In this document: one piece after another, positions 11,196 to 59,508 of the stretch | Numbering within the stretch: the first letter of the stretch is position 1 | Layout: each line of letters begins with the position of its first letter | Assembly (NCBI GenBank): GCA_963665095.1 | Contig: OY762069.1 | Coordinates: 3,616,001-3,680,000, forward strand | Length of the DNA: 64,000 bases | Direction: 5' to 3' | Origin: an uncultured Desulfobacter sp. | Lineage (GTDB): Bacteria > Desulfobacterota > Desulfobacteria > Desulfobacterales > Desulfobacteraceae | Notes under the pieces: model-generated | Told to the model about the DNA's origin: nothing | What the model saw: the letters and a program-made list of their open reading frames with translations, nothing else | Databases searched by the model: none | Translations under genes and position numbers: made by a program

Positions 11196-11196
11196 C

Positions 11197-12301: not shown

Positions 12302-12317
12302 CAACTTGAGGAATTGA

Positions 12318-34330: not shown

Positions 34331-35140
34331 TTAAAAAATTTCCGATGAAGCAATGCGGACATGCTCTGCAGATACCGTCATTGATTTTTCTGCCGCAGCA
34401 GCAATCAATGAGCCTCTGGCAAGATTATTCGCCTTTCGTAAAAGGCCGCCGGAGCCTTGATGAATCGCAGTCACCGCCTGGTCAGAAAAAAAGTTGGTGT
34501 CAACACCGCATAGTTTTAAATGATGGATCAGGTAAGTTTTCATTCCAGCCACATCCAGACCATCCAGATGGCTTTTAGCCACAATCCTGGATGCAAACGG
34601 GATTGACGTCCGGTACTGAAGCTTATCTATCAATGTCGGCTGACCTGCAAGGATCACAGGCAGCCAGGGCATGGCGTCTTTTTCAAATTGAACCAGGGTG
34701 TGAAGTTCGGCAAAGACTTCCATGCGAAGCAGAGATGCCTCATCTATAATCAAAACGGTTTTGATCTTTTTTCCCAGGACGAATTCACGTATTTCATTTT
34801 TAATAATGGAGATCATAACAGCGCGGGACGTCGATGTCCGCTCTATGCCCAGTTCTTCAACAATCTGCCGGTAAAGTTCCATGATGGAACCGCTTGAGGC
34901 CGTAACATAAAAGACTTTGTATTCCGAAGGGTGTAGGGATGAGGCGGCATACCTTAAGGCGGTGGACTTTCCGCTGCCCACATCCCCTGTGATAACCGCA
35001 CTGCAGCCAAGTCTTAAGGAATAATCAATCCGATTTTTAACGCCCGAGACCTCCGGGGTGACCAGGATATCATTGATTTCTATCTGTGCCGGGAAGGCCT
35101 CCCTATATAAGCCAAAAAAGGTACGATACATTTCACTCAT
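34331..35140 (-). CDS. ExeA/TnsC-like AAA+ ATPase (transposition helper)
   Basis: Walker A GDVGSGKS, Walker B LIIDEA, ILAGQP; 4 bp overlap with the transposase. Confidence 0.9.
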   Translation of the reverse strand: MSEMYRTFFGLYREAFPAQIEINDILVTPEVSGVKNRIDYSLRLGCSAVITGDVGSGKSTALRYAASSLHPSEYKVFYVTASSGSIMELYRQIVEELGIERTSTSRAVMISIIKNEIREFVLGKKIKTVLIIDEASLLRMEVFAELHTLVQFEKDAMPWLPVILAGQPTLIDKLQYRTSIPFASRIVAKSHLDGLDVAGMKTYLIHHLKLCGVDTNFFSDQAVTAIHQGSGGLLRKANNLARGSLIAAAAEKSMTVSAEHVRIASSEIF

Positions 35141-36393
35141 AACAGTTGCCCTCCCTTGTAATTTGAGGGTTCAGGCATAATCCGGATATCATTTTCGTTC
35201 CAGCGGTGCCGCTTGACCCGACAGTTCACAGCAAGGTCCACCGGGGTTAACAAGCCATAAGACTTTGCTTTATAGATAACTTCAGCCTGCAAAGGGGTGT
35301 CCTCATGGTACTTTACATCCACATGTCTGCCGATCAGCGCAACCGGGGCCTCAAACATGTTGCCGTCAAGGGTGATGGTTCGGTCCTTTGCCACCTTGCG
35401 CCGGGCGGTTTTGCGGAAGTGGTCTTTCAGATCCGGTGGGGCGGTACGGATGCACTCCATGGCCGAGGTAAATCTTTTAAACGGTGATTCGCCTGTGGAA
35501 CTGTGTTTACGCTGATGGTACTCATTATGAAGCCACTTCTCAAACGCCCCATTCAGATCATCCAGGGTCTTACCTGTAAATCTTTGCAGAAACTGAAGCC
35601 GAACCGTTCTGAACCAGCGCTCGATTTTACCTTTCCCCTGGGGTTTATATGGCCTTGCATGGATTAAAGCGATGGACAGAGACGCGGCTACATATTTTAA
35701 ATGATGGGATCTGAACGCAGGACCGTTATCTACATACAGCTTGCGGGGAAGCCCGCGGCTCAAAAAAGCTTGCTCCAGTACCATAAGATAGGTCTTCAGA
35801 TTCTCAGATAAATAAAAACCTGCAGCCGTAACCAGCCTGGAATGATCGTCCATAATGGCAATCAGGTACGTTTTTCTTTGCTTATCCTGAACCAGGACTG
35901 TAGGGCCGTGCATGACGTCGCTTTGCCACATATCATTGGGGTGCGGGGCTTCAAACTTTCTTCTATCCTCTGGCCGGGCCGTGTTCATTAGCCCCCGGCC
36001 GCGTAAAAAACGGTATACACTGGATGGACTGTATGTCTGGCATGTAGTTTTTTGAAGTGAACAGATCAATGTATCGACTGTCGCATCAGGCTGGTCTAAC
36101 CGGAGTTTGATTAGTTGAGATGCAGTCTCGTCATCGAATACCCTTGATTTTCCCTGGTCTGAACGGTCTTTGGGGTAAAGAGATTCTATTCGACCGTTAT
36201 ACTGCCGGACCCATCCCAGAATCGTACTTCTGGAAAGCCTGGTCCTTCCAGAATACGGGATGGACCATTTGCGGGCGCATTTCTGCTGTAAAATTCGTTC
36301 TTTTTCACCGTAATCAAAATTTGTTCCGGTCACAAATTCACAAATGACCCCAAACCTGAACACGGCAACCTCTTTTTTCTGATTTTCTGTCAT
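35137..36393 (-). CDS. DDE transposase (rve core, Mu-transposase C-terminal domain)
   Basis: HTH; WQSD, LYVDNG, GKIERWF catalytic triad; RKVAKDRTITLDG C-terminal barrel. Confidence 0.92.
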   Translation of the reverse strand: MTENQKKEVAVFRFGVICEFVTGTNFDYGEKERILQQKCARKWSIPYSGRTRLSRSTILGWVRQYNGRIESLYPKDRSDQGKSRVFDDETASQLIKLRLDQPDATVDTLICSLQKTTCQTYSPSSVYRFLRGRGLMNTARPEDRRKFEAPHPNDMWQSDVMHGPTVLVQDKQRKTYLIAIMDDHSRLVTAAGFYLSENLKTYLMVLEQAFLSRGLPRKLYVDNGPAFRSHHLKYVAASLSIALIHARPYKPQGKGKIERWFRTVRLQFLQRFTGKTLDDLNGAFEKWLHNEYHQRKHSSTGESPFKRFTSAMECIRTAPPDLKDHFRKTARRKVAKDRTITLDGNMFEAPVALIGRHVDVKYHEDTPLQAEVIYKAKSYGLLTPVDLAVNCRVKRHRWNENDIRIMPEPSNYKGGQLL

Positions 36394-38310: not shown

Positions 38311-39864
38311 TTACAAATCCCTGGCAGCTCCCCGTGAACGGACTTTTTTTCTGCCAAAAGGGACCTTAAGTTTTTTCATACGGTTGCGCAGGGTGTTGGC
38401 ATTGATCCCAAGCAGCACTGCGGCACCGCCAGGACCGTCGATACGGCCCTTTGTCATCTCCAGGACCTGTTTGATATGAATGGCATTGACCCTGTCCAGG
38501 TTCAACTCCTGACTCATGGTTGTATCAGCCGGGGAGGGAGCCTTTTTTCCAAATGCATTGACCTCAAAATCCAGCAGCCCCCCCTGGTTCATAATCAGGG
38601 CTCTTTCCACAACATTTTCAAGCTCACGCACATTGCCCGGCCAGGAATAGGCCATGAGCCGGTCAATGGAATCCGGTGCAAGCCTGGGGATAATTCTCTT
38701 TTTCAGTTCCCGGGATTTTTTCTGTATCAGATACTGAACCAGCATGGGAATATCAGCCTGACGCTGCCGCAAGGGGGGAATCTGCACGGGAAACACTTTT
38801 ATCCTGAAGTAGAGGTCCTGCCGGAACTGCCCTTTTTTCAGCATGGCTTCCAGGTCCCGGTGGGTTGCCGCAATCACCCTGACATCCACTTTGATCTGGG
38901 CGGTACCACCCACACGCTCCAGCTCCTTTTCCTGGAGAACCCGCAGCAGCCGGATCTGGGCGTTCAATGGAAGCTCGCCGATCTCATCCAGAAACAAGGT
39001 TCCGGTATGGGCTCTTTCAAAACGCCCCCTTTTTCCCTGAACCGCACCGGTAAAGGCTCCTTTTTCATGGCCGAACAACTCACTGTCCAGAAGAGAGTCA
39101 GGGATGGCACCGCAGTTGATTTTTATAAACGGCCTGTTTCTTCTTCTGGATAAATTATGGATGGCATTGGCAATCACCTCCTTGCCTGTTCCGGTCTCTC
39201 CAAGCAGCAGCACAGGGCTGTCATGGTCTGCCACCTGGTGCACCATCTCCATTGCCGCACAAAGCCCTGAGTCCTGCCCCACAACCTCCTTGCCGGTCAT
39301 GCCGTATAATTCATCCTGGAGATACCGGTTGTCGTCTGCCAGGGCGTCTTTAATGCTGACAAGCTCCCTGTAGCGAAGTGCATTGGTAATGGCAACAGCA
39401 AAGGGTTTATTTAAAAGACGGATCAAATTAACATGGTCATCTGTAAACTGCCCTGGTTTTTCATTAAAAACAGTGACCATGCCCACTTCTTTGTTTTCAA
39501 GCATCAAATCCATGATAATGGCGGATCCATTGGAAAGGTCAAAAGAGTCCAGAGCAACTTTCGTATAGATATTTTCCTTCAGATTTTCAATATAGTGAAT
39601 CCCCTGAACCCAGTTCTCCTTTACGGATGCCCGCAGGTCCGGGGGCAGCTGTATCTGCTCTGACAAGGCCTGGCCGCAGGTTTGCGAAGCCATGGCAATG
39701 GTCTCTAAAATCCCTAGTTCATAATCATGCACATGAAAAGCCATGCGGTCGGCAGGCATGAAACCCTTTAGATACAAAAGGCACTTGTGCAATGCTGTTT
39801 CAATATCAAGGCTTGAACAGATCCTTAATATAGCTTTCATGAAAAATTCGGTTTTATCAACCAT
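38311..39864 (-). CDS. GAF-containing sigma54-dependent activator (NifA/FhlA-like)
   Basis: GETGTGKE, ELFGHEKGAFTGA, LFLDEIGE, WPGNVRELEN, C-terminal HTH. Confidence 0.95.
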   Translation of the reverse strand: MVDKTEFFMKAILRICSSLDIETALHKCLLYLKGFMPADRMAFHVHDYELGILETIAMASQTCGQALSEQIQLPPDLRASVKENWVQGIHYIENLKENIYTKVALDSFDLSNGSAIIMDLMLENKEVGMVTVFNEKPGQFTDDHVNLIRLLNKPFAVAITNALRYRELVSIKDALADDNRYLQDELYGMTGKEVVGQDSGLCAAMEMVHQVADHDSPVLLLGETGTGKEVIANAIHNLSRRRNRPFIKINCGAIPDSLLDSELFGHEKGAFTGAVQGKRGRFERAHTGTLFLDEIGELPLNAQIRLLRVLQEKELERVGGTAQIKVDVRVIAATHRDLEAMLKKGQFRQDLYFRIKVFPVQIPPLRQRQADIPMLVQYLIQKKSRELKKRIIPRLAPDSIDRLMAYSWPGNVRELENVVERALIMNQGGLLDFEVNAFGKKAPSPADTTMSQELNLDRVNAIHIKQVLEMTKGRIDGPGGAAVLLGINANTLRNRMKKLKVPFGRKKVRSRGAARDL

Positions 39865-40065
39865 GTCACCTGCCCTTTAATAAATCACCGGATTTGGTAA
39901 AACCTTCTATCCCCCCCGACAAAACAAATATAAGCTGCAATATATTAGATACACTAATACCATATTTGATATAAATTAAATTTTTCACCATATATCACAG
40001 AAATCTCATGTCCCAATCTATCACCAAACACACAATATATTGACATTAAAGCATTTAGTATCCAA

Positions 40066-40081
40066 TGGCACACCCATTGCT
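40066..40081 (+). promoter_or_regulatory. Sigma54 -24/-12 promoter
   Basis: TGGCAC-ACCCA-TTGCT fits the consensus, ~40 bp upstream of ATG 40123; IHF-like site near 40033-40045. Confidence 0.9.
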
Positions 40082-40122
40082 ATATAAATTTAAATTTGAA
40101 AAACAGCAAACCCGGAGGAAAC

Positions 40123-41499
40123 ATGACATCAACACACCCCGGACAGGTGAGCAGAAAAACAAAAACCCAGGTATTTAAACAATTCGGAGATCACATCTCC
40201 AGGGGACAGATCCGGTTTTTAACTGCCGGACACCTGGATATCCTTGAAAGAAAAAGAAAAGGGATCTGCTTTTCAGAAGCACAGACAGAAAGAACATTTC
40301 TGGACTGCTTTTCCTCTGCAGGTTCATTTAACACGGGCAGGGGAAACCAGAGTATTGCCCGGGCGGCCTGCGATCACGCCGGGGTAAGCGACATGGGCTC
40401 CTCCATGCTCCTCTCCCCTTTAAAGATCAGGCTTGCCCAGAAACTTGCAGACCTTGCGCCCGGGGACATGAATAAAGTGGTGCTTACCGGCAGCGGGGCT
40501 GACTCCATCGAAGCGGCCATAAAACTTGCCAGGGGCGCCACAGGAAGGGATGAAGTCATATCCATGGTAAAGGCGTACCACGGACATTCCGGATTCAGCC
40601 TGTCCGCAGGGGGAAAGGACTACTATAAAGAGTTGTTTGAGCCGCTCATGCCGGGGTTCCGGCTTGCTGCGTTCAACGATCTTGCCGCCGTAACCGCCAT
40701 GGCCTCGGAAAAGACCGCTGCCATCCTGCTGGAACCGGTCCAGGGAGAGGGCGGTATCCATGTGGCCACAGACGAGTATTTAAAAGGTTTAAGAAATCTT
40801 TGCGACAAACTTGGAATCATCCTTATTTTTGACGAAATCCAGACCGGGTTCGGACGCACCGGCAGGTTGTGGTTTTCCCAGCATTCAGGTGTTGTGCCCG
40901 ATATCATGGCCCTGGCCAAATCCATTGGCGGCGGCATATGCCCCAATGGCGCCATGGTGTACAGAGGCACAGAACAATTGACCGGGTATGTAAACAGATT
41001 TCCTTTTTTCCACAGGTCTTCCGGCGGGGGAAGCGATCTTGGGTGTGCCGTATCCTTAAAGGTTATTGACCACCTCATGGAAACCAGGCTGTGGGAAAAT
41101 GCCGAAAAAACAGGGGGGATGTTAAAGGCAGGACTGAACCGCATTATGGCCGAAAACAGCCGGATCATCAGGGAAGTCCGGGGCAAAGGGCTTATGATAG
41201 GCATTGAATATACCCAGGAGTTCATGGGAGTGCTCATGGCGGACTGCCTGTCCAAAAGCGGTATTTTTGCGGCCTATTCAGGCAATGCCCCCCAGGTCAT
41301 GAGGTTTATGCTCCCTTTAACAGTCACGGAACATGAGGTTAATGATTTTTTAGCCCGGTTTAAAAAAGCGCTGGCCCTTCAAAAGCGTTACCTGTTTTTC
41401 CTGCTGCCCCTGAGCAAAATCCCCATTGTGCGAAAATGGTTGAATGAAGACGATATTCTTGTTCCCATCAATGTCTTTGCCAGGAAATTCGGTCTTTAA
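40123..41499 (+). CDS. Class III aminotransferase (catalytic Lys present)
   Basis: GSGADS, AYHG, EPVQGEGG, FDEIQTGFGRTG, PDIMALAKSIGGG. Confidence 0.9.
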   Translation: MTSTHPGQVSRKTKTQVFKQFGDHISRGQIRFLTAGHLDILERKRKGICFSEAQTERTFLDCFSSAGSFNTGRGNQSIARAACDHAGVSDMGSSMLLSPLKIRLAQKLADLAPGDMNKVVLTGSGADSIEAAIKLARGATGRDEVISMVKAYHGHSGFSLSAGGKDYYKELFEPLMPGFRLAAFNDLAAVTAMASEKTAAILLEPVQGEGGIHVATDEYLKGLRNLCDKLGIILIFDEIQTGFGRTGRLWFSQHSGVVPDIMALAKSIGGGICPNGAMVYRGTEQLTGYVNRFPFFHRSSGGGSDLGCAVSLKVIDHLMETRLWENAEKTGGMLKAGLNRIMAENSRIIREVRGKGLMIGIEYTQEFMGVLMADCLSKSGIFAAYSGNAPQVMRFMLPLTVTEHEVNDFLARFKKALALQKRYLFFLLPLSKIPIVRKWLNEDDILVPINVFARKFGL

Positions 41500-41572
41500 C
41501 CCTGATATTCTAAACAAACCCCCGGCTGGATTTGAAATTCCATGAACGATCCGGGTCAAAGGAGTCTTCCCC

Positions 41573-42826
41573 ATGAAAGATACTGCCACAACGGCTCAAG
41601 CAGGCAATCTTGAACAATCGTTATTACACCAGGCCAAAAATCTTTTTTCCCAAAGCCTTGTTGATAATTTAACTGCTGCAGGCCATGATATCATTGAAAC
41701 CCGCAGCCAGGGGATCTATCTTTTTGATATAAACGATAAAGCCTATATTGACTGCTATTGCGGTGCAGGCACATACAATCTTGGCAGGAACTGCAAAAAG
41801 GTGCAGGCCGAACTTCAAAATGCTGTCCTGAATACAGATTGCGGCAACTTTATTCTTATTTCCGAAGAAAAAGCTGACCTGGCCTCACACCTTGCCCGGT
41901 TCACGGGCAACGACCTTTCCTGCTGCCTTTTTACCGTAGTCCGGGGGGAGGCCATGGATGCAGCCTGTAAAATTGCCAGGGGCCATACCGGTAAAAAGCA
42001 GTTAATTGCTGCCGACGGAGGGTGGCACGGGGAGACCGGTTTTGCCTTGGGGCTTTCCCGGCGCCCGGACAAGGAGCAGTTCGGCAGGCTGATCCCGGAA
42101 CAGACAATTGTTGAATTCAACAATATAAAGGAGGCTGAAAAAGCCATCACCCATGACACTGCTGCATTTATCCTGGAACCGGTCCAGGCGGAAAACGCCT
42201 GCTGCATTGCAGATAAAGAATATCTGGAAGCTGTGAGGCAGCTTTGCAGCGAACACGGGGCATTGCTGATTTTTGATGAAACCCAGACCGGGTTCGGCCG
42301 CACCGGCCACAAATTTGCCCGGGATTATTCTGGTGTTGAACCGGACATCCTTTTATTTGGAGAAGCGGTTACATCCGGGGTTTTCCCCATGACAGGGCTT
42401 ATGTTTACCCCCCGGGTCAAATCTTTTTTTGATCTGCATCCTTTAATTCACCTGTGCACCTTTGGCGGGCATGATGTGGGGTGCAGGGTTGGTGTCAGGG
42501 CCCTTGAGGTCTATACAGAAACCCGGCCCTGGGAAAATGCCGCAAAACAGGGCAAAACACTGCTCAATCACCTTACATCCCTGAAAAACGATCATCCTGA
42601 TTTGATGACCCGGGTAAACGGACTTGGACTTTTAATTTCCGCAACCTTTGCAGATGAACCCCTTGCCCGGTCATTCTGCATACATGCAAAAAACAATGGA
42701 TTTTTTGTTGCCCAGGGCCTGGTTGACCCCAAATCTGTTATTTTCCGGCCTGCCCTGACCATGACAGATGAAGAAACCGGGCTGTTAATCCAGGCTGTGA
42801 CTGCGGCCGTACAGGCGTTGCCATGA
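41573..42826 (+). CDS. Class III aminotransferase-fold protein lacking the PLP lysine
   Basis: EPVQAE, FDETQTGFGRTG, but PDILLFGEAVTSG (Lys to Glu); intact 417 aa ORF with RBS. Confidence 0.88.
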   Translation: MKDTATTAQAGNLEQSLLHQAKNLFSQSLVDNLTAAGHDIIETRSQGIYLFDINDKAYIDCYCGAGTYNLGRNCKKVQAELQNAVLNTDCGNFILISEEKADLASHLARFTGNDLSCCLFTVVRGEAMDAACKIARGHTGKKQLIAADGGWHGETGFALGLSRRPDKEQFGRLIPEQTIVEFNNIKEAEKAITHDTAAFILEPVQAENACCIADKEYLEAVRQLCSEHGALLIFDETQTGFGRTGHKFARDYSGVEPDILLFGEAVTSGVFPMTGLMFTPRVKSFFDLHPLIHLCTFGGHDVGCRVGVRALEVYTETRPWENAAKQGKTLLNHLTSLKNDHPDLMTRVNGLGLLISATFADEPLARSFCIHAKNNGFFVAQGLVDPKSVIFRPALTMTDEETGLLIQAVTAAVQALP

Positions 42827-44514
42827 AAATCCTGTATAATATCAAGGCCTTTGCCATGGACAAAGAGTGCACCCGAGCCACGGCCATTGCCTGGGAAAAC
42901 GGAACCATCACCAGGGTGGGAGAAAAACAGGATCTGATCAGGGAGTGCAAAGATGCGGAAACAATAGACGGCCAGGGCCTTACCCTGGTTCCGGCCTTTA
43001 TTGATCCGCATATCCACTTTATGGACGGAACTGTTTACCAGGGTGCACTGGATTGTTCCCCTGCTGCTGCACCCGACATCCAGGCCCTGAAAGTATTATT
43101 GGCAAAAGAGGCTGCAAAACACAAAAAAGGAGAGTGGATTGTTGCCCAGGGCTATGACCCCTGGGCATATCCCCAAAAAAGGACCCCGTTGCGGCACGAC
43201 CTTGACCAGGCCTGCCCGAACAACCCTGTGGTAATTATTCACTACTCATTTCATGAATGCGCTGCCAACTCCAGGGCCCTTGCCCTGGCAGGAATTGACA
43301 GGGATTCACTGCCCCCGTTTGCAGGAATTATTAAAAAAGATCGCCAGGGCAATCCCACAGGACACCTTATTGAAACTGCCATGGAAAAGGTGCTGCGCCT
43401 TTCCAAAAAAGAATTGATTGCCCGGTCTGACCAGAAGATTTTGCAGCGGACCCAGACAGCCCAGCAAAAATTGTTTGAATTTGGCATCACAAGAATCGGG
43501 GATCCTGCCGTGGATCATTTAAGCCGTAAATTATACCAGCAGGCATTTGAACAAGGCATGCTGAAACTAACGGTCTTCATGTTCCCATGCAATGAACAAA
43601 ACATGCTCAAGCTCCCTTTGGACAAGCTTGACCAGCCGTTTCAATACAGAGACAATGAATGCCTGAAAACAGGGCATTTAAAAATTTTTCTGGACGGGGC
43701 AGACCGGACCGCCATGGCGTTAACCGGGAAGCAGCTTTTCCAAACCATTGCAATGACATTCTGGGATGCTGTCAGAACCATGTCCCTGACACCAGTTAAG
43801 ACAACCATGAGAAGCCCGGTAAAACTGAAAAAAGACGGATTGTTCCACTTTGGACTGATTCTGGCAGAACCGGACAAGTGCGGGCAGCTGGTTCAGAAAG
43901 CGGTTAAAAAAGGATTTTCTCCTGCCTTTCATGCCATTGGTAATGAGGCGGTTCAACTGGCGGTTGAATTGATTTCCCAGAACATGCCAAAGGCTTCCCG
44001 GTCCGGCAAAACCGTCCCCCCTCCCAGGATTGAACATGGTCTGTTCCTGAACAATGACCTGATCCGCCGGATTAAGGAGTCCGGGGCTGCAGTGGTGACC
44101 CAGCCCCTGTTTTTAACCCATATGGACAAGGAAAACCTGCCCCACATGCCGGAAATAAAGAAACTGCCCCTGCGTTCCATGATCGACCAGGGCATCCCTG
44201 TGGCCGGAAGCTCGGATTTCCCGGTGGTATCCTGCAACCCGCTGCTGGGAATTGAGCATGCGGTCACAAGGGTGACAAAAGGAAGTGAAACCCTGGATCA
44301 GCAGGAAGCTGTTACAGTGGAACAGGCCTTTGCCATGTACACCAGGCAGGCGGCTTTTGTGCTTGGATGCCTGGATGACACCGGCACCCTTTCACCAGGA
44401 AAACGGGCTGATTTTATTTTATTGTCCGGCGATCCTCTGGACAGCAGCAATGTCTGCTGGCATAAGGTCAAGGTGCAGAAAACCTATATGAACGGAAAAG
44501 TGGTGTTTCCGTAA
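42823..44514 (+). CDS. YtcJ-like metal-dependent amidohydrolase (Amidohydro_3)
   Basis: PAFIDPHIH, KIFLDG, FHAIGN, RIEHG, AGSSDFPV, GKRADF. Confidence 0.9.
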   Translation: MKILYNIKAFAMDKECTRATAIAWENGTITRVGEKQDLIRECKDAETIDGQGLTLVPAFIDPHIHFMDGTVYQGALDCSPAAAPDIQALKVLLAKEAAKHKKGEWIVAQGYDPWAYPQKRTPLRHDLDQACPNNPVVIIHYSFHECAANSRALALAGIDRDSLPPFAGIIKKDRQGNPTGHLIETAMEKVLRLSKKELIARSDQKILQRTQTAQQKLFEFGITRIGDPAVDHLSRKLYQQAFEQGMLKLTVFMFPCNEQNMLKLPLDKLDQPFQYRDNECLKTGHLKIFLDGADRTAMALTGKQLFQTIAMTFWDAVRTMSLTPVKTTMRSPVKLKKDGLFHFGLILAEPDKCGQLVQKAVKKGFSPAFHAIGNEAVQLAVELISQNMPKASRSGKTVPPPRIEHGLFLNNDLIRRIKESGAAVVTQPLFLTHMDKENLPHMPEIKKLPLRSMIDQGIPVAGSSDFPVVSCNPLLGIEHAVTRVTKGSETLDQQEAVTVEQAFAMYTRQAAFVLGCLDDTGTLSPGKRADFILLSGDPLDSSNVCWHKVKVQKTYMNGKVVFP

Positions 44515-44702: not shown

Positions 44703-46187
44703 ATGGTTTTCTCACCCACCTTTTTGTTTTTCGTAAAAAAGCGCTGCAAGCGGAATTGGGATGAACATTCGATCCCCATGTTTAAAGCATCCAACATTCA
44801 ATACGAGATTGACGGTCGCCTCCAAGGCGTTGCTCCAGGTGGCATAGGGCTGATTCATATGCTTGCAAAAAGGACCGGTCTTCTGAAAGAAATTGATAAG
44901 GAGCTCGAACTGCTTAAACGTCATTTGCCCTATCACGAATCAGATCATGTCGCCAACATGGCGTATAATATTCTTGCCGGAGGCTCCTGCCTTCAGGATA
45001 TTGAACTGCTCAGAAACAATGAAGCCTGGTTGAATGCTCTCCATGCAGAAATTATCCCAGATCCAACTACAGCGGGAGACTTTTTGCGCCGGTTTACCAA
45101 AAAAGATATCATAGCACGGCTTGACGTCAAAAATACCATCCGAAAAAAGGTATGGGAAAAGCAGCCGCAAAACTTCAAGAAAGAAGCCATTATCAATATC
45201 GACGGCACCATCAGTGAGACAACCGGCGAGTGCAAACAGGGCATGGACATCTCCTATAATGGAAAGTGGGGATATGCCCCGCTGGTGGTTTCTCTGGAAA
45301 AAACAAGGGAGCCTCTTTATATTATCAATCGATCCGGCAATGCTCCGTCCCAGCTCGAATCTGCAGGGTGGGTGGACAAGGCCCTTGATCTGCTGGAGGG
45401 CACTTTTAAAAAATTATACGTTCGGGGAGATACTGATGTCAGCCTTACTTCCAACTTTGACAAATGGGATCAACGCTGTACCTTTGTCTTTGGCATGGAC
45501 GCCAGATCAAACCTGATAAAACTGGCCGATGGCCTTTTAGATGCCGAATGGGAGATGGTTGAAAAACAGCCACAAACAATCAAAACAAGCCCCAGAAAAC
45601 GTCCTGAAAATGTTAAACTTCAGGTGGTCAAAAAACGGGACTTCAAACGTCTTGAGACCGCCTGTGAACATATAGCCGAGTTTGAATATAAACCCGGTAA
45701 ATATCGAAACTCCTACAGGATGATCGTCCTGCGTAAAACAATAAACGAGTGCAGAGGCGAACGTCTGCTGTTTGACGATATCCGTTACTTTTTTTACATC
45801 ACCAACGATTGGAAAAAATCGGCCAGGCAGCTGGTCGATTTTTACCGAAAACGGGCTGATCACGAAAATGATATTGATCAGTTGAAACATGGCGTACATG
45901 CTATGGATAACCCCTCTGATCCTCTGAATGCCAACTGGGCCTATATGGTTATTGCATCTTTGGCATGGGATCTGAAGGCCTGGTATGGAATGATGATGCC
46001 ATATCGATCATTAGGGCTTTCGATTGTCCGTATGGAATTCAAACGTTTCATCCAGACATTTATAAATATCCCCTGCCTGATCATACGGTCCGGCAGGGCT
46101 AGTAAATACCGAATCATTGGTTATAACAACAGGCTCGCAAGCGTGTTCAAGTTTTTTAACTCTTTAAAGACTGTCTGGGTTACATGA
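44703..46187 (+). CDS. IS1380 family transposase, probably 5'-truncated
   Basis: PYHESDHV, IPDPTTAGDFLRRF, NIDGT, GYAPL, RGDTD, HENDIDQLK, NWAYMVIASLAW. Confidence 0.88.
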   Translation: MVFSPTFLFFVKKRCKRNWDEHSIPMFKASNIQYEIDGRLQGVAPGGIGLIHMLAKRTGLLKEIDKELELLKRHLPYHESDHVANMAYNILAGGSCLQDIELLRNNEAWLNALHAEIIPDPTTAGDFLRRFTKKDIIARLDVKNTIRKKVWEKQPQNFKKEAIINIDGTISETTGECKQGMDISYNGKWGYAPLVVSLEKTREPLYIINRSGNAPSQLESAGWVDKALDLLEGTFKKLYVRGDTDVSLTSNFDKWDQRCTFVFGMDARSNLIKLADGLLDAEWEMVEKQPQTIKTSPRKRPENVKLQVVKKRDFKRLETACEHIAEFEYKPGKYRNSYRMIVLRKTINECRGERLLFDDIRYFFYITNDWKKSARQLVDFYRKRADHENDIDQLKHGVHAMDNPSDPLNANWAYMVIASLAWDLKAWYGMMMPYRSLGLSIVRMEFKRFIQTFINIPCLIIRSGRASKYRIIGYNNRLASVFKFFNSLKTVWVT

Positions 46188-46642: not shown

Positions 46643-47692
46643 TTGAAAATATTTTACTCCTGGCAGAGCGATATTGAAGGTAAATACAATCGCAATTTCA
46701 TTAAAGACTGCCTTGAAAAAGCTATAAAGCAGATAAACAATGAGTTGAAAATTGAAGAAGCTATCAGGTTAGACCATGACACAAAAAATGTGTCAGGCAC
46801 ACCTGATATAGTAACAACCATTTTATCAAAAATTGAAGAAAGCGATATTTTTATCGGAGATTTAACCTTTGTAGCAAAAAGTATTCATAATAACAAATTA
46901 AATCCAAACCCAAATGTTCTCATTGAGTTAGGTTACGCGCTAAGTACACTTGGAGACTCAAGAGTCATCAATATCATGAATACTGCCTATGGCAAACCAG
47001 ACAATAATTTACCCTTCGACCTTGCCCACAAACGATGGCCTATCCAGTACAATCTATCAGAGGTTAATTACAGTGAAAAAACAGAAATTAAAACCTCACT
47101 CATTGTTTCGATAAAGTCAGCATTATTTCCATTTTTAAACAAACCCAAAGCTTCTACCCCACAATTTCAATCTCAAGCTGACAAAATTTTGCATAGAGAA
47201 AAGCTGAGAAAAGAGTTTGATAATGAGTTTCTTAAGATAAGATCACAGAATCTAAGAAGAGACTCAATTATAAGGGATGTAGACCGGGTTGATGGGTATC
47301 CAAATATTGACGATGATGAAACAGGCATTTCGCCTTGGTTTAAGGTTGCTATTCTCGAAACATACACCAAAGGAGTACGTGTTGGTTTACAGGTCGTAGG
47401 TCTAAAAGAATGTGAAGGTGGCTATAGATTTGTCGATTACAAGACAAAGGAAGAAAGTGATTTAAGAGCTTATTTGGTGGGCGAAATTCCTTTTGACTCA
47501 ATAGTTACTGTAAACTGGGAAGGCGATGAATATTACTACTTTCCACACCTCTATTGCCACTTCAACAATGACGGCGAGCCATATGAAAAACTAATGTATT
47601 GTGAGAAGGTCGACATGGGAAATGGTATTGATTATTACAAGGAAATTTCTGATTATAATTCTGTAAGAAGCAATACAATGTCATTAACTTAA
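46643..47692 (+). CDS. TIR/nucleoside-deoxyribosyltransferase-like domain protein with uncharacterised C-terminal domain
   Basis: IFYSWQSD, GTPDI..TILSKIEESDIFIGD, NPNVLIELGYA, LPFDL; AT-rich; TTG start with RBS gagg. Confidence 0.7.
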   Translation: MKIFYSWQSDIEGKYNRNFIKDCLEKAIKQINNELKIEEAIRLDHDTKNVSGTPDIVTTILSKIEESDIFIGDLTFVAKSIHNNKLNPNPNVLIELGYALSTLGDSRVINIMNTAYGKPDNNLPFDLAHKRWPIQYNLSEVNYSEKTEIKTSLIVSIKSALFPFLNKPKASTPQFQSQADKILHREKLRKEFDNEFLKIRSQNLRRDSIIRDVDRVDGYPNIDDDETGISPWFKVAILETYTKGVRVGLQVVGLKECEGGYRFVDYKTKEESDLRAYLVGEIPFDSIVTVNWEGDEYYYFPHLYCHFNNDGEPYEKLMYCEKVDMGNGIDYYKEISDYNSVRSNTMSLT

Positions 47693-49171
47693 GAATGAAC
47701 AGGATTTAACTCGCTGAATTTATATGTAAATATTGAAATTTTAAGATCGACATGATATACTCAAATCTAATAATAACAGCGAATTATCAAAAAGAAAGGA
47801 GCATATCATGCCGAAACTTTTTAACCAATCTAACAGCGTTGACACGGAACCTGATTTCCAATATCTGTGCCAGGTTGATCGGATTTCTTCAAGAAATCAT
47901 CAACTCTGATCAATTTATCAAGCAGCACCACCAAAGTCCAACCGATTTTATCCGCCAACGAAAACTTCCTTTTTCAACCCTGATATTTTTTCTCATAAAT
48001 ATGGTAAAAGGCTCATATCAGGACGAACTTGATCATTTTTTCAAATCTATCTTTGGATTTGAAGTGGTTAAACGAATTGTCTCCAAAGCCGCTTTGACTA
48101 AAGCAAGAATGAAGCTGAAATATGAAGCTTTCATAGACCTCAATATGCGTTTGACCAGCTACTTTTATGAAAATTTTAAACCAAAGGAATGGCACGGGTT
48201 CAATTTGCTTGCCATAGACGGAACAACTGTTCGTTTGCCTCGAATAGAAGCTATCTCGGAGCATTTCGGGGCCTGGAATCCAAGGCAGGGAGACAAATGC
48301 CCCATGGCGAGAGTTTCACAAATGTTTGACCCCTTAAATAAAATCTCAGTGGATGCCATCATTGAATCCAAAAGCAGTGGAGAACGTGAATTGGCAGCAT
48401 TCCATTTCTTGAATTTAATGCCAAACGATTTAGTCTTCCTTGATCGAGGCTACCCGGCCTATTGGCTTTTTAATCTCATCTTGTCCCGTGGTGCTAATTT
48501 TTGTGCTCGAATCCAGCGTAAACGATGGAAAGTGGTCCGCCAGTTCTACAATTCAGGCAAAAAGGAAAAAATCATATCTTTGTCCGTATTCCCAAGTTCT
48601 ATCAAGCCCTGTAAAGAGATGGGCCTGGATCTCATCTCCTTGAAATTGAGATTAATCCGAGTGGAACTGGAAACCGGAGAATCCGAGGTTCTGATCACCT
48701 CCTTGCTTGATACACAGAGCCACCCACGCGAACTATTTGCAGATCTTTATCATCTCAGATGGCCTGTGGAAGAAGATTACAAAACAATGAAACAGTGGAT
48801 TGAAATAGAAAACTTCTCCGGCAAATCGATTCTTTCAGTGTATCAGGATTTTCATGCTAAAGTGTTTTCAAAAAACCTGATCTCAGCATTGATATACCCG
48901 ACTCAGGCCGTAATTGACAAAAATACCGAAGATCGACTTTATCGATATCAAAGAAATTTTGCCCAGACGTTATCAAAGATAAAGGATGTGCGCCCTCTCT
49001 TGTTCCTCAGGCCTTTAGAGACCGTGACCAGGTTGATATCCGATATCCAAGAGATAGTGGTAAAAACTATTGAACCGGTAAGGCCGGGACGAAAGTACCC
49101 GAGGAACTTTAATAATAGGGGCGGTCGTTTTCACTATGGATACCAGCCGCTCCGTTAAGTTAATGACATTG
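47676..49171 (+). mobile_element. IS4 family insertion sequence, 1,496 bp
   Basis: Perfect 17 bp terminal inverted repeats caatgtcattaacttaa / ttaagttaatgacattg; no target duplication. Confidence 0.92.
47752..49158 (+). CDS. IS4 family transposase (true start probably TTG 47875)
   Basis: AIDGTT, LDRGY, YHLRWPVEEDYK (YREK motif). Confidence 0.92.
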   Translation: MIYSNLIITANYQKERSISCRNFLTNLTALTRNLISNICARLIGFLQEIINSDQFIKQHHQSPTDFIRQRKLPFSTLIFFLINMVKGSYQDELDHFFKSIFGFEVVKRIVSKAALTKARMKLKYEAFIDLNMRLTSYFYENFKPKEWHGFNLLAIDGTTVRLPRIEAISEHFGAWNPRQGDKCPMARVSQMFDPLNKISVDAIIESKSSGERELAAFHFLNLMPNDLVFLDRGYPAYWLFNLILSRGANFCARIQRKRWKVVRQFYNSGKKEKIISLSVFPSSIKPCKEMGLDLISLKLRLIRVELETGESEVLITSLLDTQSHPRELFADLYHLRWPVEEDYKTMKQWIEIENFSGKSILSVYQDFHAKVFSKNLISALIYPTQAVIDKNTEDRLYRYQRNFAQTLSKIKDVRPLLFLRPLETVTRLISDIQEIVVKTIEPVRPGRKYPRNFNNRGGRFHYGYQPLR

Positions 49172-49227
49172 ACTGACAAATAATAAAAAAATTGTTACCT
49201 TGGCAATTAAAGAAAATGTGGCCTAAT

Positions 49228-50268
49228 ATGTTCAATCCCAAATTCACCATAACCAACCGCATGACATCAGCCATCACCCAAATTGAACGAGCTCGGGGTT
49301 TTCTGGAAGCGGCAATATTATCCGATGACTGGGTGAGGGATATGGGAAATCAGGCCCTTATAAAAGAGGCCCATCATACCACCCATATCGAAGGGACACG
49401 GCTGACATTGGATCAGGCAGAACGTTTATGGAAAGGTGAAGCTGTACCTGAAGCCGATCCGGATGATACCAGAGAACTGTTGAACTACCGGACTGCTTTT
49501 GAATTTGTATCCCAATGTCTGGATAGTGGTGATCCAATTACTGAAGGAATGGTACGTGAAATTCACCGAAAGCTGGTTGAGGGGGTTCGGGGCGGCAAAG
49601 CAGGTCCGGGCAACTATCGGCGGATTCAAAATTATGTGGCCAATTCATCTACAGGTAAAGTGATTTATACACCACCATCTGCGGTGGAAGTGCCGATCAT
49701 GATGTCTGAATTGGTAAAATGGCTGAATTCGAATCTTGAAATCCACCCGGTCTTGATCAGTGGGATTGCCCAATTCCAACTGGTCCATATCCATCCGTTC
49801 CTTGATGGTAACGGGCGAGCTTCAAGGCTGTTATCAACCCTCTGTCTTTACAAGGCCGGATATGATTTCAAACGGTTGTTCACCATCAGTGAATATTATG
49901 ACCGTGACAGACCGACTTTTTATAAAAAAATACAGAGTGTTCGTGAAAACGACATGGATATGACCGGATGGCTGGACTATTTCATCACCGGTCTGGAAAC
50001 TCAAATGATTGAGGTTAAAAAGCGTGGCGAACGGGTAATCCGAAGAGATGTTATGGTTCAAAAACACGGGTTGAATGAACGGCAAGGAAAGGCCATAGAG
50101 TTTTTATTAACCCATGGAAAACTCTCTATAAAAGACTTTGAAGAACTTTGTCCGGAAGTGAACCGACGAAGTTTACAGCGAGACCTAAAAGCATTTTCCG
50201 ACAAAGGTTTGGTCAAAGAAGCCGGAACCGGCCCTACAGATCCAACACGCTATTATATTCTATCATAG
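49228..50268 (+). CDS. Fic family protein with C-terminal HTH
   Basis: [12 protein letters not shown]; inhibitory [19 protein letters not shown]. Confidence 0.93.
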
Positions 50269-50429: not shown

Positions 50430-51563
50430 ATGAAGATGAATCGGATCAATTTAACATTCTGGCAGGTGCTGTTGGTATCAGCGCTGTTGATTAACGCTTT
50501 CTCACTCCCTGCTACTGCCTGTACAGGCATTCGATTAACCGCTAAAGACGGAGGTGTTGTCTATGGCAGAACTATGGAATGGGGAGCTTTCGACCTACAT
50601 ACAAGAGTCGCCATCATTCCGAGAGGGTACAAGTATGTCGGCTTAACGCCGGATGGAAACAATGGAAAAACTTATACCACAAATTATGGTATTGTTGCGC
50701 TCGACATGGTTGGAAAAGATTTCATCTCGGATGGAATGAATGAAAAAGGTTTGGCGCTGGGTATGTTTTACCACCCCGGATATGCCGTGTACCCCGAATA
50801 CAAAAAAGAGAATGCCCAAAACAGTATTTCAAGCCAGGAGCTTGCAAACTATATTTTAGGTGAATTTGCAAGCGTGCAGGAAGTGCGTGATGGCTTGCCC
50901 AATGTAACTGTAGTAGGCGTTGTTGAAAAAGCTATTGGTATAATTGTTCAAGGCCATTGGATGGTTACTGACAAAACCGGAGAATCGATTGTCATTGAAT
51001 ATACTGAAGGGAAATTAAAGATTCATGATGCCCCTCTTGGAGTTATTACCAATGCCCCAAACTACGATTGGCACATGACCAATTTAAGCAATTATGTAAA
51101 CATATCTATGTTTTCCGTAGAACCTAAGGAATTAGAAGGAGTCAAGTTTTCACCAACCGGAGCAGGTTCGGGTATGATAGGCTTGCCAGGTGACAACACG
51201 CCACCTTCGCGTTTTGTCAGAGCTGTTGCCTGGACACAAACAGCAAGAAAAACCGAAACAGCCGATGAAACTCTTTATGAGGCTTTCAGGATATTGGATA
51301 ATTTTAATCTCCCACTGGGCCCCGATGGAGCAGAAGGCGCGGGCCACGCTGGCGACACTGACTTGATGCGTTCATCAACTATCTGGACCAGCGCCTGGAA
51401 CCTTAAAGACTTGACATTGAATTACCACACACAGCACAATCGACGTATAAGGCAAGTCGATATGAAAGCTATAAATTTTGGTGAACTTGATGGTGAGATA
51501 GTGCATGTCGTTTTGGATGATAAAAAAGAACAGGATCTAAAAGATATAACGCCAAAAAAATAG
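50430..51563 (+). CDS. Secreted choloylglycine hydrolase / penicillin V acylase family Ntn hydrolase
   Basis: Signal peptide ATA/CTG with catalytic Cys; GRTMEW, DGMNEKGL, ITNAP, LPGD.TPPSRFVRA. Confidence 0.92.
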   Translation: MKMNRINLTFWQVLLVSALLINAFSLPATACTGIRLTAKDGGVVYGRTMEWGAFDLHTRVAIIPRGYKYVGLTPDGNNGKTYTTNYGIVALDMVGKDFISDGMNEKGLALGMFYHPGYAVYPEYKKENAQNSISSQELANYILGEFASVQEVRDGLPNVTVVGVVEKAIGIIVQGHWMVTDKTGESIVIEYTEGKLKIHDAPLGVITNAPNYDWHMTNLSNYVNISMFSVEPKELEGVKFSPTGAGSGMIGLPGDNTPPSRFVRAVAWTQTARKTETADETLYEAFRILDNFNLPLGPDGAEGAGHAGDTDLMRSSTIWTSAWNLKDLTLNYHTQHNRRIRQVDMKAINFGELDGEIVHVVLDDKKEQDLKDITPKK

Positions 51564-53813: not shown

Positions 53814-54665
53814 TCAGTTGTAGTCATAAAACCCTTTGCCGGACTTGCGTCCCAGCCAGCCGGCTTCCACATATTTGCGCAGCAGCGGGCAGGGTCTGTA
53901 TTTGGAGTCTTTGAATCCGTCATACAGGGTCTCCATAATGGCAAGGCAGGTATCCAGACCGATGAGGTCGGCCAGGGCCAGCGGGCCCATGGGATGGTTC
54001 ATGCCAAGCTTCATGACGGTGTCGATATCCTGGGCTTTACCCACGCTCTGGTAGAGGCAGAAAACCGCTTCGTTGATCATGGGCATCAGGATCCGGTTGG
54101 CGATAAAGCCGGGAAAATCATTGGCTTCAGCCGGGACCTTGCCGAATTTTTCAGACAGCTCCCAGGTCAGTTTAAAGGTCTCTTCGCTGGTGGCAATGCC
54201 CTTGATTACCTCAACCAGTTTCATCATGGGCACGGGATTCATGAAGTGCATGCCGATGACTTTGTCCGGACGACTGGTCTGGGCCGCAATTCTGCCGATG
54301 GGAATAGACGAGGTGTTGGTTGACAGAATGACATGTTCCGGACAGGCTTCATCCAGTTCCCGGAAAATATTGAATTTCAGGTCTTCGCGCTCAACCGCCG
54401 CTTCCACCACAAAATCAGCCTTGGCCATATCCTTTAAATCCGTGGTGGTGGTAATTCTTGCAAGGATGGCATCCTTGTCAGCCTCGGTCATTTTTTCTTT
54501 TTTCACCAGACGGCCCAAAGAGTTTGCAATGGTGGCAAGGCCTTTTTCACAGAACTCTTCTTTGATATCGCTCATGATAACGTTCAGGCCCGCTGCTGCC
54601 GCCACCTGGGCAATACCGTTGCCCATCTGGCCGGAACCAACCACACCAAAGGTTTTAACTTCCAT
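53814..54665 (-). CDS. hbd: 3-hydroxybutyryl-CoA dehydrogenase
   Basis: GSGQMGNGIA, STNTSSI, GMHFMNPVP, NHPMGPLALADLIGLD. Confidence 0.95.
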   Translation of the reverse strand: MEVKTFGVVGSGQMGNGIAQVAAAAGLNVIMSDIKEEFCEKGLATIANSLGRLVKKEKMTEADKDAILARITTTTDLKDMAKADFVVEAAVEREDLKFNIFRELDEACPEHVILSTNTSSIPIGRIAAQTSRPDKVIGMHFMNPVPMMKLVEVIKGIATSEETFKLTWELSEKFGKVPAEANDFPGFIANRILMPMINEAVFCLYQSVGKAQDIDTVMKLGMNHPMGPLALADLIGLDTCLAIMETLYDGFKDSKYRPCPLLRKYVEAGWLGRKSGKGFYDYN

Positions 54666-54763
54666 TTTACATATCTCCTTAACGTTCAACTTGGAACAAT
54701 TTGACCCGGCGCCGGGGGAGATACCGGGTTGAAAATACAGCCCCCACCCTGACGGGATGAAGA

Positions 54764-55939
<1,176 letters not shown>

Positions 55940-56005
55940 ATCCAACTCCTTTAAATTATAATAATATTCATTCTGAATTAAATTTTTATGTCTGAACAAG
56001 GGTCC

Positions 56006-56130
56006 ATGTTTGGGTGGCAAGTTGCCCAGATGCAAGGCGCAGAAAAATTTACAACCGGAGCAACCTCACGGTTGTGAGGATTGTAAATTTTTCTGCAATG
56101 CCGCAGGTGGGTGACTTGCCGCCCAAACAT
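56006..56130. repeat. 125 bp palindromic intergenic element (REP/MITE-like)
   Basis: atgtttgggtggcaagttgccca / tgggtgacttgccgcccaaacat outer arms; gcagaaaaatttacaa / ttgtaaatttttctgc inner arms. Confidence 0.8.
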
Positions 56131-59100
56131 TACATATTTCTGCGGTATTTTCCACCCACTTCATATAATGCATTGGTAATTGTTCCTAAAGAACAGTTCT
56201 GAACCGTCTCCATAAGCTGCTCAAACATATTGCCACCGGTAAGCGCCGTCTCTTTCAGGGCTGCAACTGCCGGGTCAAGCGCTTCCTCATGCGCCGTTTT
56301 AAACGCCTCAAGGCGGTCCAGCTGGGCCTGTTTCTGTTCGTCCGTGGCCCTGGCAAGATCCAGATTATTGGCCATGGCAGCATAATCGGCATCCGGGTTT
56401 TCAAAGGTGTTCACGCCAATGATAGGGTGCTTGCCCGTATGCTTGAGGTACTCGTAATAGATGGACTCTTCCTGGATTTTACCGCGCTGATAACCGGTTT
56501 CCATGGCCCCGAGCACGCCGCCGCGTTCGGTGATCCGCTCAAATTCGCACAGGACCGCCTCTTCCACCAGGTCAGTCAGCTCATCCACAATAAATGCCCC
56601 CTGAAGCGGGTTCTCATTTTTCGCCAGGCCCCACTCCCGGTTGATGATGAGCTGGATGGCCAGAGCCCGCCTTACAGACTCAGGACTTGGCGTGGTGATG
56701 GCTTCGTCATAGGCATTGGTGTGCAGGCTGTTGCAGTTGTCGTAAATGGCGCAAAGCCCCTGCAGTGTTGTTCTGATATCGTTGAACTGAATCTCCTGAC
56801 AATGCAGGGAGCGGCCTGATGTCTGGATATGATATTTGAGTTTCTGGCACTTTTCATTGGCCCCGTATTTGTACCGCATGGCCACGGCCCAGATGCGGCG
56901 GGCCACACGCCCAATCACTGTGTATTCCGGGTCCATGCCGTTGGAGAAGAAAAAGGAGAGGTTCTGGGCAAAATCATCAATGTGCATGCCCCGGGAGAGA
57001 TAATACTCCACATAGGTGAACCCGTTGGCAAGGGTGAGTGCGAGCTGGGTGATGGGGTTGGCACCGGCCTCGGCAATGTGATACCCGGAGATGGAGACGG
57101 AATAGAAATTCTGCACATTATGGTCGATAAAATACTGCTGGATATCACCCATCATCTTCAAAGCAAACTCAATGGAGAAAATACAGGTGTTCTGGCCCTG
57201 GTCCTCTTTCAGGATATCTGCCTGGACCGTGCCCCGGACATTGGACAGGGTGAATGCCTTGATCTCCTCTGCTTCCTTTTCATTGGGATCACGGCCGTTT
57301 TCCTGTTTAAATTTATCTGTCTGCTGGGCAATGGCCGTGTTCATGAACATGGCCAGCATCATGGGGGCCGGCCCGTTGATGGTCATGGAAACCGAGGTAT
57401 TGGGCGCACACAGATCAAAACCGGAATAGAGTACTTTGACATCTTCCAGGGTGCAGATACTCACGCCGGAGGTGCCGATCTTGCCGTAAATGTCCGGGCG
57501 GACATCCGGGTCAAACCCGTACAGGGTGACGGAGTCAAATGCAGTGGAGAGGCGCTTGGCCGGATACGCGGCAGACAAAAGCCGGAACCGTTCATTGGTA
57601 TCGGCAGGACCCCCTTCTCCGGCGAACATCCGGGTGGGATCCTCGTCAGCGCGTTTAAGCGGAAACACCCCGGCCGTGTATGGGAAATTGCCGGCAAAAT
57701 TCTCCTTGCGCATCCAGGAATACTGCTCTCCGGGGTCCTTGAAACCAGGAACGGAAATTTTCGGGATTTTGGAATGGGACAGGGACTGGCTGTATAAAGG
57801 CAGTCTGAACTCTTTGCCCCTGACATGGTAGACCAGCTCATCTTTTTTATAGTCACTGGTGAATTTTGAGAAATCCTCGATAATCTGGTCTGTCTCCTTG
57901 TCCACGGCCTCGGCTGCCACAGCCACGGCTGCTTTCAGGTCTGCAAGGGAGTCCCGTCCTTCCAGGGCGACCAGGGCCTGTTCCAGGTGCCAGCGCTGGC
58001 GCACGGCATCGGCCTGCGTTTCCGTGTCCTGATGGTACTGGCGCACGGTGTCTGCAATCTCAGCCAGGTATCTTACCCGCTCACCGGGAATGATGATGGT
58101 TTTGGAGGATGACTCCTTGACCCCGGTCCTGGGTATGGCGGATGTGTAAGTAACGCCTGTCTTATCGGCAATGCAATCCAGGATGCCGTGGTAAAACGCA
58201 GTAACGCCGTCGTCATTGAACTTGGAGGCGATGGTGCCGTACACCGGCATCTCACCCGGGGCTTTGTCAAAGGCTTTGCGGTTGCGCTGTACCTGTTTTC
58301 TGACATCCCGTAAGGCATCTTCGCTGCCCTTTTTCTCATATTTATTCACCGCCACAATATCGGCGTAATCAAGCATGTCAATCTTTTCCAGCTGGGAAGG
58401 CGCACCGTATTCAGCGGTCATGACATAGACGGAGAGGTCCACCAGGTCAACGACCCTGGAATCGCCCTGGCCGATACCGGCGGTTTCAACAATAACGATA
58501 TCAAACCCGGCGGCCTTGGCCACCTCCACGGCGTGGGGCAGTGCTTCGGGAAGCTCCGTCTGGGAGCGCCGGGTGGCAAGGGAGCGCATGTATACCCGGC
58601 CGGTCTCTATGGAGTTCATGCGGATACGGTCGCCAAGCAGCGCCCCACCGGTTTTTCGCCGGGATGGATCGCAGGAGATCACAGCCAGATGAATATCGGG
58701 AAAATCCCGCAAAAACCGGTTGATCAGCTCGTCCATCAAAGAGGACTTCCCTGCTCCGCCCGTGCCTGTGAGCCCGATAACCGGAACTTTCAGGCCGGCA
58801 GTTTTTTCGCGGACCTTTGCCATGATTGTCTCAAGCAGGTCACTGCCCCTGGTGCTGGCCTCCTGCACCGCAGAAATAAAATTGGCCGTGACCCGTTTAT
58901 TGTCTTTGTTCAGGGCCTCGTAATCCAGATTCTCAAAATCCACGGACGGTGCATCCATGGTCTCAAGCATGTGGTTGATGATCCCCTGAAGTCCCATTTT
59001 GGCCCCATCCTCCGGGGAGTAGATCCGGGCCACGCCATAGGCATGAAGTTCATCTATCTCCAATGGAATGATCACGCCACCGCCGCCACCGAACACCTTG

Positions 59101-59387: not shown

Positions 59388-59508
59388 AACATCTCCTTTA
59401 AAATTTGATGCCGGAAAAGTTTGATCAGACCAAACCAAGTTTATATTTCTTGTGATGTCACATCTCGCCGGAAAAATAAATACAATTTTTTAAATTATTT
59501 TAATTTTT

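Follow-up and report, generated by a model that had tools for sequence, protein, structure and literature searches.

What do two adjoining aminotransferase genes encode when neither carries a complete active site? The question is raised by an operon in a 64,000-nucleotide stretch of an uncultured Desulfobacter sp. (assembly GCA_963665095.1, contig OY762069.1, positions 3,616,001 to 3,680,000 of the forward strand), hereafter the window, to whose first letter all positions refer. Two tandem class III aminotransferase genes, A and B, lie there downstream of a divergent activator gene and are followed by the gene of an amide hydrolase. Our analysis indicates that A and B likely form an obligate heterodimer with one pyridoxal 5'-phosphate (PLP) site, probably deaminating a bulky hydrophobic amine that comes from the adjoining amide hydrolase. 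The three genes of the operon are as follows.

40123(ATG)..41499, + strand: predicted subunit A, class III aminotransferase, 458 aa (PF00202, E 7e-80)
41573..42826, + strand: predicted subunit B, full-length class III pseudo-aminotransferase, 417 aa (PF00202, E 1.9e-68)
42823..44514, + strand: Amidohydro_3 (YtcJ-like) metal-dependent amide hydrolase, 563 aa (PF07969, E 3.8e-74, 251 bits)

Gene A follows a ribosome-binding site (GGAGG, 40114-40118) and encodes the PLP lysine Lys266 (codon AAA at 40918) with SGADS and YHG motifs, its Thr loop reading RSSGGGSD. Gene B has its own ribosome-binding site (AAAGGAG, 41558-41564), Glu264 (codon GAA at 42362) at the lysine position, VRGEA, WHG and CTFGG motifs, and overlaps the hydrolase gene in an ATGA at 42823-42826. 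PF00202 is the sole Pfam match of both proteins, with 269 bits for A and 231 bits for B against a curated cut-off of 30.5. The initial annotation of this DNA had reported the tandem genes together with these motifs, the ribosome-binding site of B and the overlap, and all of them are present.

Complementary conservation in A and B

Homologs were taken as the best 120 of 5735 matches of B (B itself included, the others being 47-72% identical) and the best 120 of 7948 matches of A. Loci were taken as the best 80 of 167 relatives in a search of GTDB genomes with a B alignment, the search patterns being B-specific and without selection for A; residue counts over 66 refer to the complete A/B loci. 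A locus search with B as a single protein gave no match, while the alignment-based search did find relatives, and an ESM Atlas search returned generic class III clusters only.

In B, the Lys column holds Glu, the phosphate-binding Gly is replaced by Arg, and the TFGG loop keeps its Thr, each in 120/120 homologs and in 66/66 loci, so that the first two changes, whose generality the initial annotation had left to be checked, are invariant. Over the 66 loci Glu264 is encoded by GAG in 37 and by GAA in 29, and all six Arg codons are in use at Arg124. At position 42362 the contigs of 4/4 sequencing runs (3 studies; one run may be the source of the window) show no difference. A strain mutation or sequencing error at this position, a reservation of the same annotation, is ruled out by the agreement of the contigs and by a Glu conserved with both codons. 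Decay of B as a pseudogene is ruled out too, all 152 usable pairs among 284 close ones (dS 0.05-1.5) having a ratio of nonsynonymous to synonymous substitution rates (dN/dS) below 0.36. The median ratio of B, 0.22, denotes purifying selection, that of A being 0.14; the pairs are non-independent.

The same B proteins lack the residues of a competent chain. Besides E264 and R124, they have no conserved aromatic residue (W in 34/66), and Arg is missing from the R426 position. The WHG motif previously read in B is indeed seen in the window, but the His of FHG is replaced by Tyr in 113/120 homologs. R124, E264, G263, N208 and R392 are invariant gains located at the former site or near it, and Asp235 and Glu207 (66/66) as well as Gln238 (62/66) are retained. 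B also keeps residues expected to act in trans, T296 and F93 (66/66 each), F297 (64/66) and L291 (60/66), at positions that are variable in A.

Judged by its residues, A is the catalytically competent chain. Lys is present in 120/120 homologs, and the cis set formed by G125, Y152, H153, H155, E209, D237, Q240, K266 and R394 is complete, each residue occurring in 66/66 loci. The Thr column of the 120 homologs is variable (the top five being S40, H38, F14, L10 and T5); in paired loci Thr is found in 0/66 and, at the Phe column, Phe in 0/66, twelve residues occupying the former and thirteen the latter. The degraded Thr loop formerly described for A is there, although Ser300 at the Thr position is a conservative change in this one protein; Ser is found at that position in 12/66 loci. 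TFGG loop and Lys within one chain, as expected of a self-sufficient homodimer, are combined in neither A nor B.

The two genes also travel together. A lies directly 5' of B on the same strand in 74/80 loci, the remaining 6 being cut off by the end of the contig no more than about 200 bases from B, so that the question whether B always neighbours A is answered positively in 74/74 informative loci. In four loci (L001, L059, L067, L075) A is broken into pieces, as is B in two of them, by error or by a real break. The loci fall into at least eight named phyla, chiefly Thermodesulfobacteriota, Myxococcota and Spirochaetota. Among cultured bacteria, Desulfosudis oleivorans and Desulfoluna species have the pair. 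When 401 genomes of the window's phylum were scanned with four candidates scored per genome, strong A-type and B-type matches appeared in the same six (including that of the window, G000) and adjoined each other; some of them may repeat loci of the 80-locus set. A metagenome scan from A gave mostly distant class III genes, and the sole A-type match among the seven best loci (L081) ends at a contig edge. Six sequences are A-B fusions (L068, in which A, a linker and B share one reading frame, P0389-P0392 and the partial P0397), one cluster having 11 members and long contigs. According to FastTree trees, the fusions stand on at least three branches, two of them with unfused sisters.

From these sequence patterns we consider it likely that A/B is an obligate one-site heterodimer. 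A would bind PLP via Lys266, Asp237, Tyr152 and the Gly125 loop, and would retain the Glu209/Arg394 pair for the keto-acid half-reaction. B would complete this site in trans, offering Thr296 to the phosphate and Leu291 and Phe93 as pocket wall. The site of B itself would be devoid of PLP and probably plugged by three new residues (Arg124, Glu264, Arg392) and two retained ones (Asp235, Glu207), through a putative salt bridge with Arg in place of the pyridinium and Glu near the phosphate site.

Could A work as a homodimer, B being a regulatory or scaffolding pseudo-enzyme that tunes activity and is dispensable for the active site? Ser300, the Thr kept in 5/120 A homologs, and H297 and the GG of the loop, which A keeps, speak in that sense, and close linkage and fusion suit any stable partner. 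However, it is the partner-acting residues that B keeps (F93, T296 and F297), and the diversity at the Thr and Phe columns of A denotes a lost trans-face function, which makes this an improbable solution. We also find it unlikely that the heterodimer has two sites, the PLP site of A and a remodelled, PLP-free site in B that would receive an allosteric ligand or perform a second, non-PLP step. Arg124, Glu264, Arg392, Asp235, Glu207 and Tyr152 would form such a site, in agreement with the five invariant gains and with the retention of D235, E207 and Q238. Yet the A loop that would close it is hypervariable, the paired gains of Arg and Glu fit an internal salt-bridge plug equally well, and B evolves faster than A (dN/dS as above).

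Precedents and the unsplit sister clade

Class III aminotransferases are treated as homodimers, and databases name both genes putrescine, acetylornithine or taurine aminotransferases. PatA/YgjG of E. coli (PDB 4uox) is the best PDB match for B (E 4e-55) and for the A profile (E 7e-99); it displays the class III fold and the same cis/trans division of residues. It is likewise the top NCBIfam model for both, below cut-off, the PatA equivalog cut-offs of 612 and 658.65 bits being failed by A (311/262) and B (237/203). In YgjG, as reported in PMC4244111, Gly150, Thr151, Phe180, Asp271, Val273 and Lys300 bind PLP, while Thr332 and Phe327 come from the other subunit of a homodimer with two sites. 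Here, in contrast, the residues are divided between two genes and those shaping the putrescine pocket are changed. Cut-offs and pocket residues together rule out putrescine, ornithine or taurine aminotransferase as an assignment; the taurine name of one A homolog is an automatic label. Positions were mapped to YgjG via a PatA-like homolog (P0280) and the PDB-match alignments. The Gln119/Phe93 position, which is unmarked in the YgjG paper, we take to act in trans as in other class III structures.

One-site heterodimers of fold-type I are known outside class III. PMC11726168 describes SerTA (Ser4/Ser5, Serratia sp. ATCC 39006), which is encoded by tandem genes and has its one site where an active chain meets a Lys-less one; the latter completes this sole PLP site and binds the phosphate in trans, and the chains are insoluble alone. 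SerTA differs in belonging to the sugar-aminotransferase (DegT/DnrJ) family, whereas A and B match PF00202 only, and in being, in the same text, biosynthetic and carrier-protein linked. Ser4 is there a truncated large domain of 24.6 kDa; B, in contrast, has its full length and carries specific substitutions to Glu and Arg. The initial annotation had drawn a parallel with LCB1/LCB2 of serine palmitoyltransferase. These are homologous full-length subunits, the PLP lysine being in one of them, for which PMC3794620 proposes a single active site, bacterial relatives being homodimers. They are set apart by their alpha-oxoamine synthase chemistry, their eukaryotic, membrane-bound nature and an independent origin. 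At the gene level, A and B are of the kind of SerTA and LCB1/LCB2, linked homologous genes with one product Lys-less but keeping the trans residues. A survey of the published literature outside most subscription journals and supplements found SerTA, serine palmitoyltransferase and fumonisin transaminases, and no class III heterodimer. The A/B pair is thus a real, widespread and apparently undescribed variant, and expression of A or B alone would likely fail or mislead.

Closest to the pair is a sister clade, C, made up of single genes or tandem pairs (C1+C2), both of which keep Lys. In a quickly built tree (116 rows, comprising representatives and 24 of the loci), A, B and C form one clade with a Shimodaira-Hasegawa-like approximate likelihood ratio support of 95, A having 100 and B 99, without a resolved order among the three. 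Clade C carries both sets, with 19/19 at most of their sites; K, G, Y, H and R as well as F, T and F each reach this count, and all 19 combine TFGG loop and Lys in one chain. Of the columns conserved in C, A alone retains 39 and B alone 15, and both trans segments belong to the latter group. A cis set kept in A and a trans set kept in B is the pattern expected of a duplicated homodimer of which each copy supplies one face. The pair would have arisen when a homodimeric C-type gene was duplicated and the two copies then underwent complementary losses. The cis and trans faces of a homodimer are in this case split over two genes, and unsplit C, tandem C1+C2, split pair and re-fused chains are all extant.

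The hydrophobic C-terminal tail of A extends a median of 76 aa beyond the V392 anchor, about 37 residues more than the 39 aa of clade C. Some A-type proteins (P0251, P0394-P0396, P0398, P0399) bear an Ala/Gly/Arg-rich low-complexity C-terminal extension of 200-270 residues.

Several relatives show other states of the same positions. In one family of clade C operons (L205:8053-18686, L201:2229-12957, L200:8551-17734), C1 and C2 both keep Lys, and in C2 the trans Thr is replaced by Ser and the trans Phe by Trp; C2 may represent an early stage of the A/B split. The operon is complete in L205 and L201, in the order TetR, C1, SCP2, C2, APC permease, split transketolase, SCP2-domain protein, APC permease and alanine dehydrogenase; in L200, three V4R genes stand ahead of the transketolase. 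P0248, a long branch sister to all B proteins, keeps Lys and already has Arg at the phosphate Gly, and is a possible intermediate. In a separate clade, P0256, P0265 and P0266 keep the STFGG loop intact while the PLP lysine is replaced by Arg or His, possibly a second, independent pseudo-subunit lineage. More distant class III relatives (L193:6114-8380, L195:7536-9841; P0320, P0381, P0384, P0288) adjoin or are fused to DUF6206, or form one chain with an APH-type kinase domain and, at the N terminus, a NAD-binding domain.

Substrate and neighbourhood

What would such an enzyme act on? Compared with PatA/YgjG, the pocket shows the changes Phe91 to Ala, Leu419 to Gly, Gln119 to Phe (B) and Lys183 to His, which are largely found in C as well; Phe327 of the other subunit is changed to Leu (B). 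Phe91 and Leu419 are entrance residues of YgjG, and the first four substitutions suggest a pocket that is wider and apolar and lacks a carboxylate clamp. In the surroundings of the 80 pairs we find an alanine dehydrogenase in 32, a Zn-dehydrogenase in 10 (closest to threonine, butanediol and sorbitol dehydrogenases in the one member tested) and an amide hydrolase in 29, namely Amidohydro_2 in 15, Amidohydro_3 in 13 and an amidase in 1. The occurrence of three unrelated amide hydrolases beside one enzyme supports an amide-to-amine step. Thus, of the route from amide to amine to aldehyde formerly suggested for this operon, the first step holds at the family level, but the product may be a ketone or a ketol. 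In the window, the Amidohydro_3 protein has all its metal-ligand motifs (HxH, His, His and Asp, in DPHIH 61, HAIGN 370, EHG 404 and SSDF 463), its best PDB matches being the uncharacterised hydrolases 3icj/3igh. It adjoins B as had been said, but this partner is an exchangeable module.

We lean towards a catabolic transaminase for a bulky hydrophobic amine, with less assurance than for the heterodimer itself. The pathway would run from amide to amine to carbonyl with pyruvate as the usual acceptor, recycled by alanine dehydrogenase. The genome of the window has no alanine dehydrogenase, so that acceptor or recycling must differ there. A one-site heterodimer with a non-catabolic role, either a biosynthetic aminase whose donor is supplied by alanine dehydrogenase or a class III racemase or lyase, accords with the missing dehydrogenase of this genome and with the racemases, epimerases and lyases of class III fold in the PDB match lists, but is very improbable in view of the ligand-responsive regulators, amide hydrolases and clade C uptake permeases of the neighbourhoods, which fit catabolism, and of Glu209/Arg394/Gln240, kept in A and tied to the keto-acid half-reaction in PMC4244111.

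A catabolic transaminase remaining our preferred reading, clade C offers hints about its substrate. An SCP2 lipid-carrier gene follows the C gene in 13/14 loci and an APC permease is present in 11/14; a split transketolase is also encoded at three C loci that belong to one family, accompanied at two of these by alanine dehydrogenase. At C locus L194, a cassette TetR-alanine dehydrogenase-aminotransferase-Amidohydro_3 has one intact gene where the pair would stand. On chemical grounds, deamination of a 2-amino-1,3-diol gives a ketol that a transketolase could cleave. A sphingoid-type amino-diol is thus a candidate substrate of A/B, albeit a doubtful one. As a functional model of the route one may consider FumI of Sphingopyxis, a class III enzyme that, according to PMC3136697 and PMC9858248, deaminates a long-chain 2-amino polyol (aminopentol) with pyruvate downstream of a hydrolase. 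FumI is encoded by a single gene, and no FumI structure is among the best 60 PDB matches of A or B, which are thus probably not close homologs of it.

Taken jointly, these elements allow a tentative picture to which we attach only a small probability: A/B would be the first obligate one-site heterodimer of class III, its homodimeric ancestor type surviving as clade C, and would provide the deamination in an anaerobic route, so far undescribed, for ceramide or other N-acyl lipids. The amide hydrolase would free a sphingoid-type amino-diol, which A/B would convert with pyruvate to a 2-keto-diol, and the hydrophobic tail of A would stand in for the SCP2 lipid carrier needed by C. If the lipid-amine part is true, this would provide a route for the anaerobic turnover of amide and sphingolipid necromass; a literature search on such turnover had no such route among its results. 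Independently of lipids, a natural single-chain fusion giving a single-site, wide-pocket transaminase could serve as a biocatalyst scaffold.

A number of points weigh against our interpretation. Ser300 of the window's A could still bind phosphate, so that homodimers of A may be partly active. With Asp235, Glu207 and Gln238, B retains more than a simply dead site needs. The A and B trees are congruent (distance correlation r 0.88, against 0.17 for the best of 999 shuffles), as linkage by itself would make them. Heterodimer, PLP stoichiometry and activity are predictions from sequence. As to the pathway, an amide hydrolase is missing from 51/80 loci, and from 31/51 when loci with long flanks are counted alone, and SCP2, APC permease and transketolase are found in 0/80 A/B loci, the lipid clues coming from the sister clade. 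In the genome of the window neither alanine dehydrogenase nor SCP2 or a C-type cassette was found, and its Amidohydro_3 protein is only 24-27% identical to those of other pair loci, which argues against a simple transfer of the pathway to this genome.

Control of the operon and surrounding features

The features that surround the three genes, and rocD for comparison, are listed below.

38311..39864, - strand: divergent sigma-54 enhancer-binding activator, 517 aa (Pfam Sigma54_activat, E 2.5e-72; HTH_8)
39959..39972, + strand: ACCATATTTGATA-type motif, candidate activator binding site (14-mer ATACCATATTTGATA)
40066..40081, + strand: sigma-54 -24/-12 promoter TGGCAC-N5-TTGCT, exact match, with the ATG of A 41 nt downstream
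34331..36393, - strand: left flank, rve transposase and ExeA-like ATPase of an insertion sequence (Pfam rve, AAA_22)
44703..46187, + strand: right flank, DDE transposase (Pfam DDE_Tnp_1_4 and DDE_Tnp_1); a second DDE transposase at 47752-49158
9698-10930: rocD, comparison gene, passing the TIGR01885 cut-off with all five canonical motifs

The canonical character of rocD, against which the initial annotation had measured A and B, is thereby borne out. So is the consensus sigma-54 promoter 5' of the operon, the only zero-mismatch site of the window; the 6.9 Mb genome holds 23, or 0.21 per 64 kb. Sites with one mismatch are not in excess (5 in the window versus a chance mean of 3.15), and therefore the weight of the promoter rests on its exact match and position. 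Counts from a sigma-70 promoter and terminator scan are at chance level. The divergent activator, announced as a GAF protein, has an AAA+ domain with a strong sigma-54 activator match and a Fis-type helix-turn-helix, but its putative GAF domain is a weak match (GAF_2, E 0.001, below cut-off); the closest NCBIfam models, NifA/FhlA/NorR, are each below cut-off as well. By eye, the 14-mer also occurs 5' of A in the one further locus that has a divergent activator, L001, and MAFFT left the two copies unaligned. In this genome, the activator would induce the operon. Such control, proposed from this locus, applies to it but is ruled out as a family trait, an activator homolog being near the pair in 2/80 loci and a motif scan giving no sigma-54 site 5' of A across the 80. 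TetR is the usual regulator (24/80 by tblastn, 36/80 by clustering).

B is present in 2/151 searched genomes of the host's family, this one counted. Together with the flanking transposases, this is consistent with the operon being a mobile or acquired module.

Other parts of the window and genome deserve mention. At 8696-13268 a LysR gene divergent from rocD and two amidinotransferase/DDAH-like genes likely form, with rocD, an arginine/citrulline-to-ornithine catabolic cluster. Set between transposases are a low-GC gene at 46643-47692, whose similarity to the CAP12/Pycsar TIR domain is weak (E 7.7e-05, below cut-off), and, at 49192-50268, the gene of a Fic protein; together they constitute a possible defence island. 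A choloylglycine hydrolase or linear amide C-N hydrolase with an N-terminal hydrophobic leader is encoded at 50430-51563, 6 kb 3' of the operon. Behind a TetR gene, the region 53814-59438 encodes a 3-hydroxyacyl-CoA dehydrogenase, a thiolase and a fused B12-binding/MeaB/mutase protein, presumably of IcmF-like architecture. Outside the window, at about 6,409,000-6,470,000 of G000:C1, there are three further class III aminotransferases, an Amidohydro_3 protein, an APC permease and a paralog of the activator.

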